From a virus (lineage: Duplodnaviria > Heunggongvirae > Uroviricota > Caudoviricetes): DNA of 64,000 bases. Position numbers and translations under genes: made by a program. Below are positions 4,695-33,143 of this stretch, piece after piece. The DNA lies in IMG/VR virus record IMGVR_UViG_3300045988_138358, one strand, 5' to 3'. Numbering within the stretch: position 1 is the first letter of the stretch; each line of letters starts with the position of its first letter. Below the pieces are notes generated by a model, which saw only the letters and a program-made list of their open reading frames with translations, was not told the origin of the DNA and ran no database searches.

Positions 4695-7600
4695 TAATCC
4701 TCCAGCAGAGCATCCAGCGACGGGTCATTAATAGTTGTGCTCGCACGTGGTCGCGGCTGCGGCTGCGATGTTTTGACAACCTTATCTGGATCGCCTTTTG
4801 TATTATTTTTGTTCACATTCAGAAGGTCTTTCAGGATGGAACAGACGTTATCCAGCGCCTTCAACATAGCAGGATCGTTATTTGCAGTGTCAGTAGTTAA
4901 TGGTTGTCTTATTCCGCTTCGAGCAAGATCGGTTACAGTGGGAAGCTGTGGCGGCATAGCAAGAAAAGGTTCCTGCACGGCTGACGCAGTGCCAAATATG
5001 GCGTTATTTGCCTCAGTTGATATTCCTTTGATGCTATCGGCAGTTTGTTGAATGCCATTATTTAGCCAACCACCAGCACTTTTTGTAAGTGGGCTAATCG
5101 CCCTGGCGATTGTTGAATTCTGCCCTGTAGCCTGATAGACAAAATCATTTAATATGCCAGTGCCATCGATGCCACCAACAAGCTGTGAAACGTTATCACC
5201 AATTGCAGGTAATACAGCCGAACCAATGCGCTTTATGCCTGTTAATGACGAATCAAACAAAGAACCAAGAAATCCCTTATCTTCGCCGTCTATTACCTTA
5301 TTGCCATTGTCATAGACCGGAATCCCTTTTGAGTTTACAGGTGTTTTTTTATTCTCTGTTGGCTGTGCAGCGTCAGAGAGAAGATCGACCGAAGACATAT
5401 CGCGTTCAGGTGTCGGCCTTTTTTGTATAGCCTCCCTGATATCAGCTACCTGTGGTGCTTTTTTGAATCCAAAAGATTTTCCGGTTAAGCCGGATATTTT
5501 TTCAGTCAGAGCCTGATCCATTCCCTTCGCCTTTTCTGAAAGCGAAGATATAGAACCAAATGAAGTAGCCGACGCAAAATCCTTCACCAAGTCCAGACTT
5601 GTTCCAGCAAGACTGGTAGCCGCGCCGCCAAATAAATCACTTACTCCACTGATACCGCTTTCATTTATGGCGATTAACCGCTCAAGCAAACTCGATGGCG
5701 AGCCAGTATTAACATCAGCGTTCTCTGGAATAATCGGTTGTGGTCGGTTACCTGTTTTTTGTGGCTTTTTGGCTGCCTGGGCATGTTGTGCAACCTCAAT
5801 TGGCTTAGGTGTTGCTGTTGGGACTGCATTCAATACAGGTTGTGCCGGAGATGTACCATCAGCATATCTCACCTTGCGACCAACGCTATATTGCGAATCA
5901 CGAGCAATTAGCTGACCGCCATTCTCTTTCTGAATTTTATTAAGCCGCGCCAATGTTTCATCGGAGAAGCGCCCCTCCCAACGACCGGTATTTGCATTGA
6001 ACGCCCCAAGAGCATTCTTAATAAACTCATTATTAACCGCAGGGTTTCCGCCTTCTTTCGTCGCAATAGCACGAACTAATTGCGTCATAACCTCCGGGTT
6101 GCTGACATCTATTTTTTCATTAGGCGATACACCAAGATATTTACTGACGTTATCAATATATTGGTTAGTATTGTTCTCATTTGGCGGTGCCCATTTTGAA
6201 ATGATGCTGGATACTGTTTGCAGCTTCTGATACCCGGCGGCAGCACTTGTACCGTTGTAATAACTCGATACCTGGTTTGCCAATGCCCGAATCCCTTCTT
6301 CGGGCGTATTAAACCGCGCAAAACGCTGTTCGCCTTTCGCGTTCGGCGCTTCCAGTACCGCCCCCTCCTGATTTGCAAAAACCAGGTTCCCCAGGTTGTT
6401 ATTCCGGTAATTCCTGTTCTTGGCGTTGCTTCCGCCTATATTCAGATCAGCCGTTATTGTATTTTTTTCAGGCGCTTTAAATTCGTCTGGCGATTTGTAG
6501 CCGTGTTCACCCACGCCATCCTCACCACTGCGCCCGCCCTGTAGCTGTCGGGCCAGATCATTAATTGCGGCTACCGTTTGCTTGGTGCCATCTTCAACGG
6601 CTTTCTTAACCTGCGCAGTGCCTTCGCTGCTTGATGAGAACGATTCTTTTAGGCTGCTGAATACGTTTTTTGTCGTGTCTATAGAACTATTTATGCCACG
6701 AGCAATATCTCCAGTATCAAAATTCTGAAGTTTTTCACCAGCCCCCTCAAAGCCTAACGCAGAAATCCCTTTACCTATCAGGTTGGTTGCGCCAGAAACT
6801 AAGCCGCCCATATCAAGCACATTAGCTGTTGCGTAAGCCGATTTTTGCTGTCTGGACACAGCATCATCATCACTTAAGCCAAAAGCTGCCTTTTGCGCCT
6901 CTGTATCTGTGTAACCATCTATGGCGTCATATCCAGCCATTGCCAGCGAACCGATGATAGGGACCGCTCTTGCCGCTGTGGATGCTGCTGATTTAACACC
7001 TATTTTTGCTGCACTTTTGAGGGCTACAGATTCAGTTTTTTTCTTTGCAATGACTTCGCCGGTTTTAATGGTGGCATCTTCAGCCACAACACCAGCTGAC
7101 TTCACGGCCTTAGCAGTATTTTTTGTTTCCTTTGCAATCCCCTTTGATGTATCGCTGATAGTGCTTACATCTTTGGGTTTGCTGATCTTATTTTTAACTA
7201 CTTTTGCTGCTCCGACACCAGTGCCAGCCGCAGCGCTACCGGCAGCAACTTTTTCGCCAGCGGAGAGTGCTTTTTTCCCAAGATTGCGGCCTTTCCTTTT
7301 CGATTTGTTCCGTTTATTTTTTCCCGTCTGATCACCAATATTGATTTTATTTCTTCTGCTTGCTCGATTTTTCCAGAGATCACTTAAGCCGAACTTATTT
7401 CCAGAAGACACTGATTTCCGAAGCTTAACTATCTCGTCAGAAACATTTTCCAGACCATCAATTATTTTGTTGTCATTGGTCTGAAGGATTTTGGTTTGCT
7501 CTTCTACTGCTTGTGCGGATTTTGTCTCAACAGCGTTATTGAATGCTTTTGCAGATGTTGCTTTTTGAGAATTCACCGCCGCCGGATAAGTAATTACTGG

Positions 7601-27829: not shown

Positions 27830-28597
27830 TCACCCCATAGATATCGAGGTTTCGGTAATAATACGTTTTGCGTCCAACTCCCATGCTGTGATCACGTCTG
27901 CAATCACACTTATCGGCGCTTGTGTGGCATAAATACGCTCTTCTCCAATTGGTGCCGAAACATCCGTAAATCCGACTTCTTTGGCATCCTGTATCGAGCA
28001 AATCAGCGGGACCGGGACACGAACAAGGTGAGTGGTTGCTTCAAATTGTGTACCTGTCATCAGGCGAAGCCGTGCGCCCAGCGAATTACACATCAGACTC
28101 ATGGTCGCTTTATCAGTTGCCATTAACGTAACGTCATACGTCAGAATGGCCTGGGTGTATTCCAGTTCTGCTAAAGGCATTCCGGTATCCGGTTCGCAAA
28201 AACTGGCTACTTTTTTGCGGTCAATCTGCTGATCATCGTTGATATAATTGATATCCATAGTGCGTGAGATATTGACCAGGGGGAGAGCATCCCGGTTAAT
28301 GTTCTGGTTTTCAGGTTTTCTCCCTTGCCCGGCATTTGCGCGACGAACTGCTTTAAGAAACTCGATCGCATTGTCGAAACGGGCCACATAGACACGCTCT
28401 GCTGGTGGACGATTCAGGAATGACGCAAAGCGTTTTTCTTCCGGCGCGGGGGCCACCAGTAAGATATCAGAAAAGATATTGCTGATTAGCGTAGCAAACG
28501 CGTTATCCACGTTTTCAAAGCCCGTGGTCTGGAATTTTCCTGTGCGTGAGGTTTGCCATTCACCTGTTCGCGCCAGGAGGGTTTTATTTGAAGTCAT
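27830..28597 (-). CDS. hypothetical protein
   Basis: ORF track 255 aa. Confidence 0.3.
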   Translation of the reverse strand: MTSNKTLLARTGEWQTSRTGKFQTTGFENVDNAFATLISNIFSDILLVAPAPEEKRFASFLNRPPAERVYVARFDNAIEFLKAVRRANAGQGRKPENQNINRDALPLVNISRTMDINYINDDQQIDRKKVASFCEPDTGMPLAELEYTQAILTYDVTLMATDKATMSLMCNSLGARLRLMTGTQFEATTHLVRVPVPLICSIQDAKEVGFTDVSAPIGEERIYATQAPISVIADVITAWELDAKRIITETSISMG

Positions 28598-29487
28598 TCG
28601 ATCACTCCGTTTTGAGTCGTATCAAAATTCCTGGCAGGTATGCAGTAGTAAAGCGAACCAACATGCTGTGTGCCGTAGCTAAAAATACGGTGCACGTACC
28701 ACCAGCGGCGGGCTACGCCGTTTACCATCTCTTCATTCCATTCAAGAATTGATCCGACGGGGACGTTATTTGCTGCAATACGCAGAATCAGAACATCATC
28801 GGTTAAGCCATCCTGCTCACCGTCTGCGTCAATCGCATGGAAAGAGTCACGCCCGTCCGGGTTATCCAGCACATAAACGATTTCAGGTTCCTGGTAAGTC
28901 AGTTCGCGCTGGTTGTTATCCAGTTCAGTGAATGACTCTTCTCCTGTTTCGTCGCTGACTACCCCATATGTGCCAACATCTGGTCGATATAAGAGAGCCT
29001 GAAACGCGTCTGGGCTGGATTCAATAATCAGCATCCAGTCTGCGCGGATTTGGTCGTTAAAGGCTTTATGCCCGTTATAGCGTGCTTTTAGCTGTGGAGT
29101 TGGTTCTCTGCCAGCCAGGGAAGGTGGAAGTATGGCTATATCTGATTCGGCAGCATCCGGAGTAAGGCCAGCGTTGCTATCAGCAAAATTATCATGGCTA
29201 TCAGCTTTGGCGGCGGGTTGCTCTTCCAGAATGCTGAATGAATCCGAACCGGTATTGCCATGTTCCGGCGCACCTCCTGCATTCGCTTCAATCGGCGCTG
29301 GCGTTTCTCTCTGCGTGCTGTCATGTTCTGACTCCTTACTTGCCAGGTTTGCATCGTCAGCAAACCATTCGTCAAAACGGCCCATAAGCATCCTCAAAGG
29401 TCGATCTGTCAGGTATCGAAAGGAAGATTTTCGGGAGATTGTGATTTTGGATGAAGGAGGGGGAATCCATAAAATGCACTTGCGCAC
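28594..29487 (-). CDS. hypothetical acidic protein
   Basis: ORF track 297 aa; true start may be the ATG near 29385 with GAGG upstream. Confidence 0.3.
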   Translation of the reverse strand: MRKCILWIPPPSSKITISRKSSFRYLTDRPLRMLMGRFDEWFADDANLASKESEHDSTQRETPAPIEANAGGAPEHGNTGSDSFSILEEQPAAKADSHDNFADSNAGLTPDAAESDIAILPPSLAGREPTPQLKARYNGHKAFNDQIRADWMLIIESSPDAFQALLYRPDVGTYGVVSDETGEESFTELDNNQRELTYQEPEIVYVLDNPDGRDSFHAIDADGEQDGLTDDVLILRIAANNVPVGSILEWNEEMVNGVARRWWYVHRIFSYGTQHVGSLYYCIPARNFDTTQNGVIE

Positions 29488-29547
29488 AGTGCAACAGTGC
29501 GCTATAGTTATGGCATTCGGTAATCATCACGGAGGATCAAATGACTA

Positions 29548-29850
29548 ATGACCAAAAAAATTAACATAAAGGATTTCAGGGATGCGTGGCTTGATGATTT
29601 TTTTGAATTTTCAACACCACATAGAAAGATACCTCCTGATATTCATATGACATTGTCACGGAAGTTGGACATTATCAATGCCGCAACTACCTGTAAGGAT
29701 TTAAGATCACCACCAGGTAATCGGTATGAGGAACTGTCAGGGAAGCTAAATGGCTATTCATCAGTAAGGGTGAATAAGCAATATAGGTTAATTTTTAAGT
29801 GGGTTAACGGAAAGGCCGAGGACTTGTATCTCGACCCTCACAAATACTAA
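29548..29850 (+). CDS. higB: HigB-type killer toxin
   Basis: ORF track 100 aa; C-terminus matches the HigB/killer-protein family pattern as I recall it; toxin-first order. Confidence 0.7.
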   Translation: MTKKINIKDFRDAWLDDFFEFSTPHRKIPPDIHMTLSRKLDIINAATTCKDLRSPPGNRYEELSGKLNGYSSVRVNKQYRLIFKWVNGKAEDLYLDPHKY

Positions 29851-29920
29851 AACAGATACCCGGTTACGGACCGGGTTCTGACCAGAGTCCACTTAATACG
29901 CACGCTAGTAAGGGCAAAAA

Positions 29921-30259
29921 ATGAAACAGGCAACCAGAAAACCGACGACCGTAGGTGATATCCTTCTGTACGAATACCTGGAGCCGTTAGAGCTGAAGAT
30001 CAACGAGTTAGCAGAAATACTTCATGTTCATCGTAACACCGTAAGTGCTCTTGTTAATAATAATCGTAAGCTAACGATGGATATGGCATATCGCCTGGCA
30101 AAAGCATTCGATACTTCTGTAGATTTTTGGATTAATCTTCAGACCGCAGTAGATCTGTGGGAAGTCGAAAATGATATGCGCGTTCAGGAAGAGTTAAGTC
30201 GTATCAATACTGCTGAAAAATTTATTTCTCAGCGGAACCTGAATAAAAAAGCAGCCTGA
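29921..30259 (+). CDS. higA: HigA-type HTH antitoxin
   Basis: ORF track 112 aa; XRE-type HTH. Confidence 0.7.
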   Translation: MKQATRKPTTVGDILLYEYLEPLELKINELAEILHVHRNTVSALVNNNRKLTMDMAYRLAKAFDTSVDFWINLQTAVDLWEVENDMRVQEELSRINTAEKFISQRNLNKKAA

Positions 30260-30276
30260 TATAGTAAAACACATAC

Positions 30277-30309
30277 AAAAAGCCCACTTAGCAAGTGGGC
30301 TTTCCTTTG
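30277..30309 (+). terminator. intrinsic terminator after higA
   Basis: Hairpin AGCCCACTT-agca-AGTGGGCT then a T-rich tract. Confidence 0.55.
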
Positions 30310-30315
30310 TAATTA

Positions 30316-30516
30316 ATGAACATTAAACCTATCCGTACAGAACAAGATTATGAGGCCGCACTGCGTGCGGTCGAACCGATGTTCGATAACGAACCGGAAA
30401 TGAATACTCCGGAAGGTGATTTCTTTGAGGTTATGAGTCTTCTCATTGAGGAGTACGAGAAGAAACATTACCCAATTCAGCCACCATCACCTGTTGAATC
30501 TTTTAACTATCCATAA
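30316..30516 (+). pseudogene. truncated antitoxin-like gene: N-terminal domain only, HTH domain missing
   Basis: ORF track 66 aa; the ORF stops where the AT-rich insert begins. Confidence 0.45.
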
Positions 30517-30537
30517 TAAAAGTAATCAGGATAAGCT

Positions 30538-31266
30538 ATGATGTCAGAAAAAGTTACAGATAATCCGTCTATAAATGAAACAGAACTAAAATCATTTTCT
30601 GAAATAATAAAAGATAAAATATTTAACAAGGTTTTTGCATATGTTGTCATTTCTTTTCTAATTTTTAACTGGAAGGATATTTTAATTATATTAAAGTCAA
30701 AGGACGACATCCTATATACATTATCTATTGTTTTTGTTGGTGGTAATGTCCCGTTCTTTGATAATTGGATTGTATCCCCGTGGGTTTATCACGTTGTAAT
30801 CCCATTTGTTTATGGAGTATTTGCATCTGTGTTAGCTCCTATTCTCACACTGAAGATATCTAAGCTAACAAGTAAATTATACACTGAAATAAGATATTTA
30901 GATGAAGCTGCTGATTATGATAAAAGAATAGAATTGCAAAGAAAGAAAACAAAGTTAAATCAAGCAACCAATGACGCTAAATATTCAAAACAAATCTTAG
31001 ATGAAAATGAAAATAAACTTAATGACCTAGCTAAGAAACAGCGAGAAATTTGCGGCGCGATAAAACTATTGCATACTGATGTTGGCAGTATTATTGAGCT
31101 ATATAAAAATAAGGGGGTTAGCATTGAATCTCCGCAAGATTTATGTGATTTTATAGTCGCTATAAAAAGCACATCATTCTATAATGATGACAAGCATTTT
31201 AATAAATTGGTGTCTGATATTTCCAGTTTGTTTGATAATACTGGAATTGATCTTTCAAAAAAATGA
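30538..31266 (+). CDS. AT-rich membrane protein with C-terminal coiled coil
   Basis: ORF track 242 aa; hydrophobic helices then Lys/Glu-rich coiled coil; GC content visibly lower than flanks. Confidence 0.5.
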   Translation: MMSEKVTDNPSINETELKSFSEIIKDKIFNKVFAYVVISFLIFNWKDILIILKSKDDILYTLSIVFVGGNVPFFDNWIVSPWVYHVVIPFVYGVFASVLAPILTLKISKLTSKLYTEIRYLDEAADYDKRIELQRKKTKLNQATNDAKYSKQILDENENKLNDLAKKQREICGAIKLLHTDVGSIIELYKNKGVSIESPQDLCDFIVAIKSTSFYNDDKHFNKLVSDISSLFDNTGIDLSKK

Positions 31267-31299
31267 AAGCCCAGCATAAACTACTAGGCTATGTGTGGT

Positions 31300-32493
31300 T
31301 TATGCTTTTTTCACGTACTCTATAAACATCTTCTCAGCCTGTTCTTGTGGCGTTCCAGCCATGACAAGCGCATCAATGAACGCCTGCTTCTTCAGTGCGA
31401 ACTGATCGGCAAGGCGTTGCTGAAGTTCCTTATTTTTCTGTTTCTCACGTTGCAAGGCCGCTTCTTTTGCAGCCGCCCGTTTTTTCTGTGCGTCTGACAA
31501 CTTTCTGGCCCTGGTCAATTGGTCACGTAGCTTGTCGATCTTGCCGTTGTCCTTTGCCAGTTTTGTACTTAAAGCTGCCTGGCGTTTCTGATAGAGCCTC
31601 CATTCGCGTTTGGCGGCTTCAACGTTCGTTTTACTGCTACGATTGCGATTAAACTCCTTCTCGTCTTCTTTTGAGAAGTGTTTAGTTGTACGGCGGCGAT
31701 CGTCACCAAATGCAATTTGCGTTGCAGCCTTTTGTAGCGCACGAGCAATACTCATTTGCCAACTGGCGGACTGTAACCGCGTCATTGAGTGGATCACGTG
31801 TTTACAGGCGACGCCTTGCAGCTTCGGGTTGCGAACTTTTGGATAGGCGTATTCTTTTGGCGGTGCCAGGGCAAAGTTACCCGCAGTGGCGATGTAACGA
31901 TACCAGTATTGATGACGACCACAGTCACAATCGAAAGACACTCGCCCGGCGCACAGTGATTTAGTGATTTTGAGAGCTGATTTATCGTCTTCTGCGATGT
32001 CATCAACCATCTGATCCCATTCTTCAAAGCGTATCCGGACGATATGGTGCTGGTGGACGGATATATCCGATGCTTCTACGCGGATATTAATCACATTGTG
32101 GCGAAGAGATACGGGGGTAGCTCTTTTGATACCAGATCCGTCATCCACGGCGTTATTTGCACGCTTAATATCGATTGCCTGGCTGGATGCCACCAGCTGG
32201 GCGTATGTGATGCCAGCCGTCTTGCTGTCATATTTTTCGCGCGTTTTACTCCGTAGCTTTTCGAAACCTTTCAGGTCGTCTCGCGTGAAGAACGTGCCGC
32301 CTTTTTTCTTCCCTAACTTGAGAATATCTTCGGCGGATTTGTTCCTCAGTCTACCTGGCGTCAGCGTCCGGTGAGCTTGTCGGCGCTTACGGGTTTGTTC
32401 TTTCCTGATAATCTCGAATAAACGCGTGAAGTCCTTAGAGGACAGGCCGTCAGTGATATAGCGCCCGTCCTGGTTTTTCAGGAAATCAGGCAT
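31300..32493 (-). CDS. hypothetical protein with SWIM-like CxC..CxH cluster and basic coiled-coil tail
   Basis: ORF track 397 aa. Confidence 0.4.
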   Translation of the reverse strand: MPDFLKNQDGRYITDGLSSKDFTRLFEIIRKEQTRKRRQAHRTLTPGRLRNKSAEDILKLGKKKGGTFFTRDDLKGFEKLRSKTREKYDSKTAGITYAQLVASSQAIDIKRANNAVDDGSGIKRATPVSLRHNVINIRVEASDISVHQHHIVRIRFEEWDQMVDDIAEDDKSALKITKSLCAGRVSFDCDCGRHQYWYRYIATAGNFALAPPKEYAYPKVRNPKLQGVACKHVIHSMTRLQSASWQMSIARALQKAATQIAFGDDRRRTTKHFSKEDEKEFNRNRSSKTNVEAAKREWRLYQKRQAALSTKLAKDNGKIDKLRDQLTRARKLSDAQKKRAAAKEAALQREKQKNKELQQRLADQFALKKQAFIDALVMAGTPQEQAEKMFIEYVKKA

Positions 32494-32815
32494 TTTCTAT
32501 CTCCGGTTCCGCGCTTGCGTAATCACGGATCTTGTTCCTCAGCCATGCCACATCAGGAAGAGTTAACGTGGTCCCTGCGGGCATTTCTTCCATTTCTGAC
32601 TCATGGCCCACCAGCACCCGGAATACCCAGCGCAAATCTGCATTGCCATACGCCCTGTAGGCTGCAAGGTCTGAACGATATACTTCATCAATCTTTATCG
32701 TGTACTGGAAATTATCAGAGTGATACTCCGATACCCGCTTAATCATTTCCTGGTGAAACAGCGCACGAAAAATATCGTCTTCAATGTACCTATCGTCGAG
32801 TCTGCTATAGCCCAT
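32486..32815 (-). CDS. hypothetical protein
   Basis: ORF track 109 aa; overlaps the downstream gene by 8 nt. Confidence 0.35.
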   Translation of the reverse strand: MGYSRLDDRYIEDDIFRALFHQEMIKRVSEYHSDNFQYTIKIDEVYRSDLAAYRAYGNADLRWVFRVLVGHESEMEEMPAGTTLTLPDVAWLRNKIRDYASAEPEIENA

Positions 32816-33008
32816 AACAAAGCCTCTCAGTCATAACCTGGGGGAAACTGTATGCAGGGTGTGAAATGCGAGAAACAGACAGGCCACCAGTTCAGGGGGA
32901 TGTGGTTCATAAATCCCCTCACTGGTGACAAGTGACTTTCATTAATCTTTATGCGGGGGCCAGCTTCATTTGCTGGCATTAGATTAAAAATTAAACGGAG
33001 TGAATAAC

Positions 33009-33143
33009 ATGGATGTTATCTTCGAATTATTAATGCTAATTGATCTGTTTATGAACGCTTCATTGACCACTCAAATACTGGCGTCAATATTTTTGTTACT
33101 CTTCTACCTGGTATTGAGGGAGTTAACAAAGCTACTAATGTGA
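33009..33143 (+). CDS. small hydrophobic protein, 44 aa
   Basis: Hand-found; ATG 33009 with GGAG ~10 nt upstream; stop abuts the stop of the convergent minus gene. Confidence 0.3.
   Translation: MDVIFELLMLIDLFMNASLTTQILASIFLLLFYLVLRELTKLLM

Follow-up and report, generated by a model that had tools for sequence, protein, structure and literature searches.

How a piece of an antitoxin gene came to lie between an intact toxin-antitoxin pair and an AT-rich gene for a putative membrane protein, and what that last gene may do for its carrier, are the questions raised by the locus analysed here, which occupies positions 29548-31266 of a 64,000-nucleotide (nt) stretch of Caudoviricetes DNA (IMG/VR record IMGVR_UViG_3300045988_138358); the whole stretch is called the window below. 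The original prediction held that a cargo gene, recently inserted, had replaced the helix-turn-helix (HTH) half of the antitoxin. Comparison with relatives points to another history, which we consider probable: two nested replacements, which would have left a relic antitoxin beside an autonomous membrane protein. Of the anatomy of the locus, as described here, we are highly confident. Four open reading frames (ORFs) lie on the plus strand between two tail genes, and all four are genes with significant hidden Markov model (HMM) matches, not chance ORFs. The PF05015 HigB and HigA of the upstream pair are labelled T1 and A1, the PF09907 HigB T2, the 119-amino-acid (aa) antitoxin A2 and the 242-aa protein M. 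The features that carry the argument are the following:

29548-29850, plus strand: ORF1 (T1), a HigB-like toxin of 100 aa (PF05015, E=4.4e-35, profile positions 1-91 of 91; phrog_3066)
29921-30259, plus strand: ORF2 (A1), a HigA antitoxin of 112 aa (TIGR02607, E=7.9e-30; HTH_3 PF01381, E=7e-11)
30279-30303, no strand assigned: hairpin after higA, resembling a bidirectional intrinsic terminator (terminator scan, stem of 11-13 bp; RNA fold -17.9 kcal/mol, z=-4.8)
30316-30516, plus strand: ORF3, the A2 remnant of 66 aa (PD-Lambda-2_B positions 1-65 of 402, E=2.5e-16; a pseudogene in RefSeq)
30538-31266, plus strand: ORF4 (M), 242 aa (phrog_8191, E=1.8e-122, function unknown)
29448-30308, plus strand: first swappable cassette, with promoter region, PF05015 higB, higA and terminator (homology to the T2-type loci L002 and L003 is lost at 29447 and is back at 30309)
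30498-31304, plus strand: second swappable cassette, the AT-rich variable segment with the M allele (DNA homology to other alleles absent, or partial at 68-78%)

The 66-aa ORF proved to be, as had been proposed, the N-terminal domain only of a two-domain antitoxin. It is 91% identical to residues 1-65 of orf72 of Escherichia phage D6, a P1-related phage-plasmid, and comparison of relatives recovered the uninterrupted antitoxin with its HTH, 119 aa long in D6 and in 15 other loci. In orf72 the N-terminal domain is followed by HTH_3 at residues 63-115, past the breakpoint seen in the window, and the protein matches positions 1-119 of PD-Lambda-2_B (E=4e-43) as well as HigA of E. coli K-12 (5IFG_B, E=9e-8), with both halves aligned. 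In ORF3, codons 1-60 are homologous to A2 and are followed by six new codons and four in-frame stops; it also matches the 66-position phrog_10398, it found no match in Pfam or NCBIfam, and HTH_3 has left no trace. RefSeq annotates it as a pseudogene, "incomplete ... missing C-terminus". Since two helices on the N-terminal side of K-12 HigA wrap HigB, the HTH being C-terminal (PMC7984235), the window would have kept the toxin-binding half of A2 without its DNA-binding half. Set against the K-12 HigB-HigA system (YgjN/YgjM; 5IFG), the 66-aa ORF and its 119-aa relatives belong to the same family, the N-terminal domain and HTH of the relatives being aligned; ORF3 has the N-terminal toxin-binding helical domain of a K-12-type HigA and lacks two defining features, the C-terminal HTH and a cognate PF09907 HigB upstream. 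The profile matches make A2 the cognate antitoxin of a HigB of the K-12 type; it is not related to the PF05015/TIGR02607 pair that precedes it here.

The missing partner of A2 is present in relatives. Breakpoints were placed by pairwise BLAST of the window against seven of these, and D6-like loci were seen to carry either T2 or T1 and A1, then A2, then M, each arrangement with several M alleles. T2, a PF09907 HigB of 100 aa (E=3.3e-34) that also matches PD-Lambda-2_A (E=1e-41), ends 4 nt upstream of A2, and the T2-A2 couple was found in pF374-2, in pTB423 and in five IMG/VR loci (the T2 loci are L002, L003, L022, L024, L025, L028 and L029). Where these other D6-like elements have a PF09907 higB cassette of 383 nt, the window has one of 861 nt, and no PF09907-type toxin was found anywhere in the window by tblastn with T2. 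Judged from these breakpoints, the PF09907 toxin has been displaced in the window by the PF05015 higBA cassette, which orphaned A2.

The evolution of A2 differs between the two contexts. Among 14 distinct DNA alleles, which differ at 0.15-0.20 of synonymous sites (pS) while their proteins remain 93-100% identical, the ratio of nonsynonymous to synonymous differences per site (pN/pS) is 0.01 next to T2 and 0.10 behind T1 and A1. A2 is intact in all seven loci that keep T2, and it has been disrupted three independent times, each time in a locus with T1 and A1:

30316-30516 of the window: recombination junction at codon 61
L026, 3558-3939: frameshift near codon 53
L021, 3512-3871: nonsense mutation at codon 69

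Selection on A2 is thus relaxed in the T1 and A1 context, and an antitoxin that is intact beside its toxin and broken or relaxed beside another pair follows the pattern expected of an antitoxin without its toxin. We therefore favour, with a confidence somewhat above even, the view that the 66-aa ORF is a decaying relic, a pseudogene and not a designed part of the locus. All three disruptions fall between codons 53 and 69 and leave the frame of the N-terminal toxin-binding domain open; selection preserving that domain was considered and dropped, three events being too few (the chance from position only is about 0.18).

The second replacement concerns M. Against every other allele type, homology ends at 30497 (+/-9), which is codon 61 of A2, and in most types identity at the level of the backbone is back only at 31305-31307, in the 3' end of the gene 25 homologue downstream, with partial matches of 68-78% to the 5' half of M inside the variable segment. 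The exceptions are L005, with homology back at 31123, and D6, which is aligned continuously from 30607 (89% over 30607-32600). In all other allele types the variable segment starts past the A2 stop and a conserved hairpin, GGCGGTCTGGATGACCGC, that is followed by a T-rich run; in the window this hairpin and the HTH half of A2 are both missing. The 40 nt between the breakpoint and the start of M had no source among the fetched loci. The end of the 66-aa ORF at the onset of AT-rich DNA, a point of the original prediction, was borne out by composition as well as by homology, G+C content (GC) dropping from 44% in ORF3 codons 1-60 to 29.5% in M, between flanking tail genes of 49-50%.

What this boundary means is another matter. 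A recent insertion of novel AT-rich cargo that destroyed the HTH half of the antitoxin would account for a sharp break in GC and homology exactly where the conserved part of ORF3 ends. However, relatives with an intact A2, D6 and many others, already have an M homologue, 242-259 aa long, in that slot (58% aa identity in D6, down to 35%; 58%, 43%, 43% and 37% in the four homologues examined first, 58% being that of D6), and D6-like M alleles are all just as AT-rich, at 29-33% GC. With IMG/VR and metagenome loci included, the slot holds at least eight allele groups, 35-80% identical. The claim of recency fared no better: of 5,426 complete E. coli genomes, 51 have the window's M allele and 51 the junction, which is also present in Salmonella and Shigella, whereas another 44 of the 5,426 carry a full-length A2. 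Equal counts for allele and junction would be expected from one ancestral event, and the sequences indicate that the allele swap was such a single event, whose descendants now form a common lineage; as window-type M has diverged to 95-100% nt identity, the event was not especially recent. The insertion of new cargo is on these grounds highly improbable. By the breakpoints, what happened is an allele replacement, or a swap plus a deletion, with its left crossover inside A2.

The protein encoded by the variable segment has the features that had been foreseen, namely hydrophobic helices and a coiled coil: hydropathy gives two peaks, centred near residues 43 and 95, and the AlphaFold model made from a 24-sequence alignment (predicted local distance difference test score, pLDDT, of 77.8; a model from two sequences, at 50.7, was unusable) has helices at 31-53 and 81-192 and a small C-terminal helical domain. 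The layout is thus a two-helix membrane domain at about 26-112, a coiled coil at about 113-192 and the C-terminal domain. The conserved part is the membrane part, where all the nearly invariant positions lie (S39, N44, I48, S54, P89, G93 and P101); in pairwise comparisons of nine alleles, residues 26-112 average 55% identity, the coil 23% and the C-terminal part 27%. Among alleles of the window's group the ratio of nonsynonymous to synonymous substitution rates (dN/dS) is about 0.2-0.6, against about 0.1 for the gene 25 homologue. A word-indexed protein search recovered two alleles only, and the family emerged from an exhaustive HMMER search, with 41 clusters at E<=1e-3 among 1.84e9 representatives. 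The M-related families phrog_8191, 13369, 22645 and 4780 are all of unknown function. M had no significant match in Pfam, NCBIfam (coiled-coil noise below the cut-off only) or PADLOC, and neither M nor its homologues had one in PADLOC at thresholds of E<=0.1 and E<=0.01; the family alignment, used as a profile against PDB, returned coiled-coil noise only, and Foldseek with the model found nothing significant in BFVD (best E=2.1) or PDB (best E=2.5). By these comparisons, M represents a rare, fast-evolving and hypervariable family with a conserved membrane core and belongs to no described family. For residues 1-107 (30538-30860) the top Foldseek matches in PDB were the two-helix pore domains of the potassium channels MthK, Kv2.1 and THIK1; these are not significant (E>2, probability below 0.1, no conserved selectivity-filter motif in M), so that a channel-like effector would be a weak lead from the model.

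As regards expression, M is preceded by a Shine-Dalgarno-like AGGA and stands 21 nt behind ORF3. A read-through fusion of the two was rejected, the genes sharing a frame but being parted by four in-frame stops. A promoter scan gave sites no more numerous than shuffled sequences would, with no convincing sigma-70 site for ORF3 or M. The terminator expected after the 242-aa gene was found between M and the convergent gene 25 homologue:

31264-31313, no strand assigned: hairpin and U6 run, resembling a bidirectional terminator (-18.2 kcal/mol, z=-3.4, then UUUUUU; the minus-strand version comes from the terminator scan)

M is intact in about 70 plasmid records and in the 51 E. coli genomes of window type. 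In L023 (3859-4634) and L028 (3974-4701) it is split into two frames, through a frameshift pseudogene or an assembly error.

The upstream pair is ordinary, and the description of an intact toxin-first HigB/HigA module held in full, with full-length PF05015 and TIGR02607 matches in that order, on one strand, separated by a spacer of 70 nt. T1, which is 100% identical in D6, matched GraT (6F8S_B, E=2.8e-14) and Proteus vulgaris HigB (4MCT_B) in PDB and is by family a predicted RelE-superfamily mRNA interferase. A1 scored 102.5 bits against TIGR02607, whose cut-off is 47.7, and its closest solved relative is E. coli YbaQ (2EBY_A, E=1e-53). By their profiles the two are members of the PF05015/TIGR02607 HigBA family. 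The hairpin at 30279-30303 ends higBA 12 nt before the ATG of ORF3. The pair shares with HigBA modules of the Rts1/GraTA type the toxin-first order, the full-length HMM matches and an HTH antitoxin, with no notable difference except that its antitoxin is closest to the orphan YbaQ. Since the module is plasmid-borne, an addiction role is expected, and we infer that it is the active addiction or stress module of the plasmid prophage. YbaQ of E. coli K-12 is itself a chromosomal orphan HTH protein, and given its closeness to A1 it may be a leftover antitoxin of the same HigBA lineage.

The genomic setting is that of a D6-like phage-plasmid. A 2-kb region around the locus is 89% identical to D6 in two pieces; in PLSDB it has matches of up to 100% identity in 116 plasmids from E. 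coli, Salmonella and Shigella, which are of about 75-95 kb and nearly all non-mobilizable. The D6 annotation identifies the minus-strand genes at either side as homologues of P1 genes, namely 6, 24 and 7 to the left and 25 and 26 to the right, the two nearest being:

28594-29487, minus strand: left neighbour, a homologue of tail gene 7 of P1 (annotated in D6 as "similar to P1 gene 7"; 98% aa identity across relatives)
31300-32493, minus strand: right flank, homologue of P1 tail gene 25 (D6 annotation; 56% aa identity to P1 gp25)

The flanking tail genes are 95-100% identical among relatives, in which the gene 7 homologue is annotated in a shorter form of 264 aa. In P1 (NC_005856, 74.3-78.5 kb) genes 26-25-7-24-6-5 form one contiguous late operon, and genes 25 and 7 are contiguous, 3 nt apart, without a cassette between them. 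The plus-strand insertion at 29448-31304, opposite in strand to the tail genes and bounded by hairpins at both sides, is therefore accessory and specific to D6-like elements. In this lineage an opposite-strand cassette and bidirectional terminator-like hairpins split the P1-type late operon (28594-32815 in the window), and genes 7-24-6-5 presumably need, for this reason, a late promoter of their own or anti-termination. As part of the explanation that we favour, and with similar confidence, the region would be an accessory cassette expressed in the lysogen and situated where tail genes 7 and 25 flank a hotspot of recombination. An Rfam scan of 29000-31800 found no RNA family, and the locus was not mentioned in the phage-plasmid literature searched by term. 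In L026 the same hotspot holds an extra ORF of 159 aa between M and gene 25 (4832-5311), with no match in Pfam, PHROG or PADLOC. Another variable site is found between the homologues of gene 26 and mat: at 32816-33143 the window has an AT-rich spacer only (36% GC) with a 47-aa hydrophobic ORF at 33000-33143, and at the equivalent position L002, L005, L017, L026 and L040 have an extra minus-strand pair of RelE/ParE and HigA.

M is not confined to D6-like elements, nor to the partners seen in them. In the P1-like contig L027 and in the Enterobacter plasmid L042 it follows a PF09907 HigB of 103 aa and a HigA of 139 aa, the toxin-antitoxin genes of the two being 97% identical and their M alleles unrelated, and in the P1-like contig L035 it follows a ParE/RelE toxin of 87 aa and an HTH protein of 124 aa. 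Homologues occur on 54 large Klebsiella plasmids; the Klebsiella carriers of higB-higA-M are large IncFIB/IncHI1B plasmids, not phage-plasmids. In the one examined, pKp1198 (L041, 2959-5748), the HigB103-HigA139-M trio is present, its M gene being interrupted by inserted DNA of about 1 kb, and most other Klebsiella records have IS903B annotated at the M match. pKp1198 and L027 share a block of 96% homology that begins 194 nt upstream of higB and ends exactly at the stop of M, so higB-higA-M can move as one unit. M also stands alone. One homologue lies between housekeeping genes in Enterobacter (the sole locus from the contig scan with a 9-sequence alignment), and distant ones, of about 22% identity, lie on E. 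coli and Citrobacter chromosomes (L030, L032-L034, L036 and L038). Chromosomal homologues stand 3-14 nt from a convergent gene for a small serine recombinase or DNA invertase (phrog_125), and in L036 the homologue comes directly after a large serine integrase. Several of the chromosomal M islands adjoin cls/yciY and a YCII gene. Conversely, pTB423 has T2-A2 without M, and A2 is nearly invariant whereas M ranges over 35-80% identity, so the two do not co-vary. From these distributions M would seem to be autonomous, needing neither the relic nor the lost toxin.

Comparison with characterized systems helps to delimit what M may do. T2 and A2 of the relatives resemble PD-Lambda-2_A and positions 1-119 of PD-Lambda-2_B, and both layouts have three genes; in PD-lambda-2 the third gene is required for defence and not for neutralisation (Vassallo et al. 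2022, PMC9519451). A2, with 119 aa against 402 positions, differs in lacking the C-terminal peptidase domain of PD-lambda-2B, and the third gene is M, which is no relative of the P4 antitoxin. In the window itself HigB has no PADLOC match (component A is matched by the relatives' T2 only), component B, an HTH with an ImmA/IrrE-type peptidase, is represented by 65 of 402 positions, and M has no PADLOC match in the place of component C. The locus was therefore ruled out as a PD-lambda-2 system, since it is without A, without the peptidase of B and without C.

Known inner-membrane proteins of prophages that act in exclusion or abortive infection include HK97 gp15, T4 Imm, lambda RexB and lactococcal Sie2009. 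M is like them a small, allele-rich membrane accessory protein near structural or integration genes, with probable expression in the prophage also shared; its long cytoplasmic coiled coil and its linkage to HigBA are particular to it, and it has no sequence or fold similarity to annotated families in PADLOC-DB v2, PHROGs, PDB or BFVD.

Taken together, the history that we propose would start from a slot occupied by a PF09907 HigB (K-12-type, PD-lambda-2A-like), a HigA of 119 aa with a toxin-wrapping N-terminal domain and a C-terminal HTH, and M. The PF09907 toxin and its promoter would then have been replaced by a self-contained PF05015 higB-higA-terminator cassette, which orphaned the 119-aa antitoxin, and M would have been exchanged for another allele, the left crossover at codon 61 of A2 removing both the HTH domain and the hairpin that normally stands behind the antitoxin. 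Because this hairpin has been deleted and no promoter was detected, transcripts of M in the window probably start at the higBA promoter and reach the gene by read-through. The protein may be made in lysogens and act at the inner membrane by excluding or aborting superinfecting phages or competing elements, with the conserved membrane domain as anchor or effector and the hypervariable cytoplasmic coiled coil and C-terminal part as the determinants of specificity. This role in exclusion or abortive infection, suggested by position, strand, allele turnover and the association with integrase genes, is a serious possibility that falls short of probable.

Several observations weigh against this reading. 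M belongs to no PADLOC model or annotated family, so its role rests on context and evolutionary pattern; neither ORF3 nor M has a convincing sigma-70 promoter, so that expression in the window is assumed; and all three disruptions of A2 spared the N-terminal ORF, so the relic could still have a use. M stands repeatedly and directly downstream of RelE-superfamily pairs, three different ones, and higB-higA-M is one block common to a P1-like element and Klebsiella plasmids, which argues for some functional coupling to the toxin-antitoxin pair, played down when M is read as autonomous. The main functional rival is a tripartite module of HigB, HigA and M, comparable to PD-lambda-2 or to toxin-antitoxin-chaperone systems, with M as phage sensor, specificity factor or membrane effector of HigB-mediated abortive infection; in the window its partner would now be the PF05015 HigBA pair that was substituted. 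At all phage-plasmid loci examined M does stand behind a toxin-first RelE-superfamily pair (T2-A2; the K-12-like HigB103-HigA139 in L027 and L042; ParE/RelE87-HTH124 in L035), the homology between pKp1198 and the P1-like contig stops exactly at the end of M, and T2 and A2 match the first two components of PD-lambda-2 (E=1e-41 and 4e-43), a system whose third gene is needed for defence (PMC9519451). Nevertheless, M occurs alone in chromosomal islands, a pair without M exists in pTB423, M alleles are freely exchanged while A2 is invariant and are found with two unrelated types of toxin, and the window has lost the original toxin and antitoxin although M has stayed intact (about 70 plasmid records, 51 E. 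coli genomes), so that we regard a tripartite module as unlikely. The adjacency of the A2 remnant and M on one strand, 21 nt apart, with AGGA before M, would also fit a pair in antitoxin-first order whose membrane toxin is M. This pairing is contradicted by the lack of co-variation between an invariant A2 and a hypervariable M, by the occurrence of each without the other, by the broken A2 of L026 (frameshift) and L021 (nonsense) beside an intact M, and by the terminator-like hairpin that parts the two in other alleles; we give it almost no credence.

The relic itself could be a functional mini-antitoxin, devoid of DNA binding, that neutralises the PF09907 HigB of rival incompatible D6-like plasmids and so serves anti-addiction. 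ORF3 keeps the whole stretch that aligns to the HigB-wrapping N-terminal helices of K-12 HigA (PMC7984235), its frame is intact in nine of nine IMG/VR copies, the three independent losses of the HTH all leave an N-terminal ORF of 54-68 aa, and a target exists, as about half of E. coli D6-like plasmids carry intact A2 and some of them also T2. Against this, selection on A2 is relaxed in the T1 and A1 context, the divergence of the window-type lineage (0-1 substitutions) is too low to show constraint, three events past codon 52 are not significant, roughly (67/119)^3 = 0.18, ORF3 lies 12 nt behind a strong terminator hairpin with no promoter found, the window has no T2 gene, and RefSeq calls it a pseudogene; the idea is in our view improbable, and a decaying relic remains the reading that we prefer. 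M may also have a membrane role outside defence, for instance as a small ion channel or viroporin, in the timing of lysis or in plasmid maintenance, and its variability would then reflect weak constraint and no arms race. Its dN/dS lies below 1 and is never clearly positive, it is frameshifted in L023 and L028 and interrupted in pKp1198 (about 1 kb), IS903B is annotated at the match in most Klebsiella records, and its best, not significant, Foldseek matches in PDB are the two-helix potassium-channel pores (E>2). P1, however, builds virions and lyses without M, the gene is opposite in strand to the late operon and grouped with toxin-antitoxin genes, its alleles turn over to an extreme degree inside flanks of 95-99% identity, and at the edges of islands, where accessory genes typically lie, it also occurs beside genes for an integrase or invertase; a role of this kind seems to us less credible still than a tripartite module. 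The boldest combination would make higB-higA-M an unrecognised three-gene mobile module of P1/D6-like phage-plasmids and large Klebsiella plasmids, in which M is the specificity sensor or effector of phage or plasmid exclusion and can be re-coupled to unrelated RelE-family pairs, the window being a "rewired" version with the N-terminal domain as an anti-addiction peptide; we consider it doubtful.

The HigBA pair and the truncated antitoxin are in themselves ordinary, and the truncation had already been flagged in RefSeq. The locus is of interest as a clean natural example of toxin-antitoxin cassettes that displace each other at a hotspot of a phage-plasmid, leaving orphan antitoxins to decay. 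The new element is M, a family that associates with HigBA cassettes in a modular and hypervariable way and whose alleles are exchanged at fixed boundaries in plasmid prophages (E. coli, Salmonella, Shigella and Enterobacter) that are otherwise nearly identical. If M were indeed a determinant of exclusion or abortive infection, it would be a new family of membrane proteins in prophage-encoded immunity, and it would help to explain how P1/D6-like plasmids, which are widespread and also disseminate resistance genes, compete with one another.

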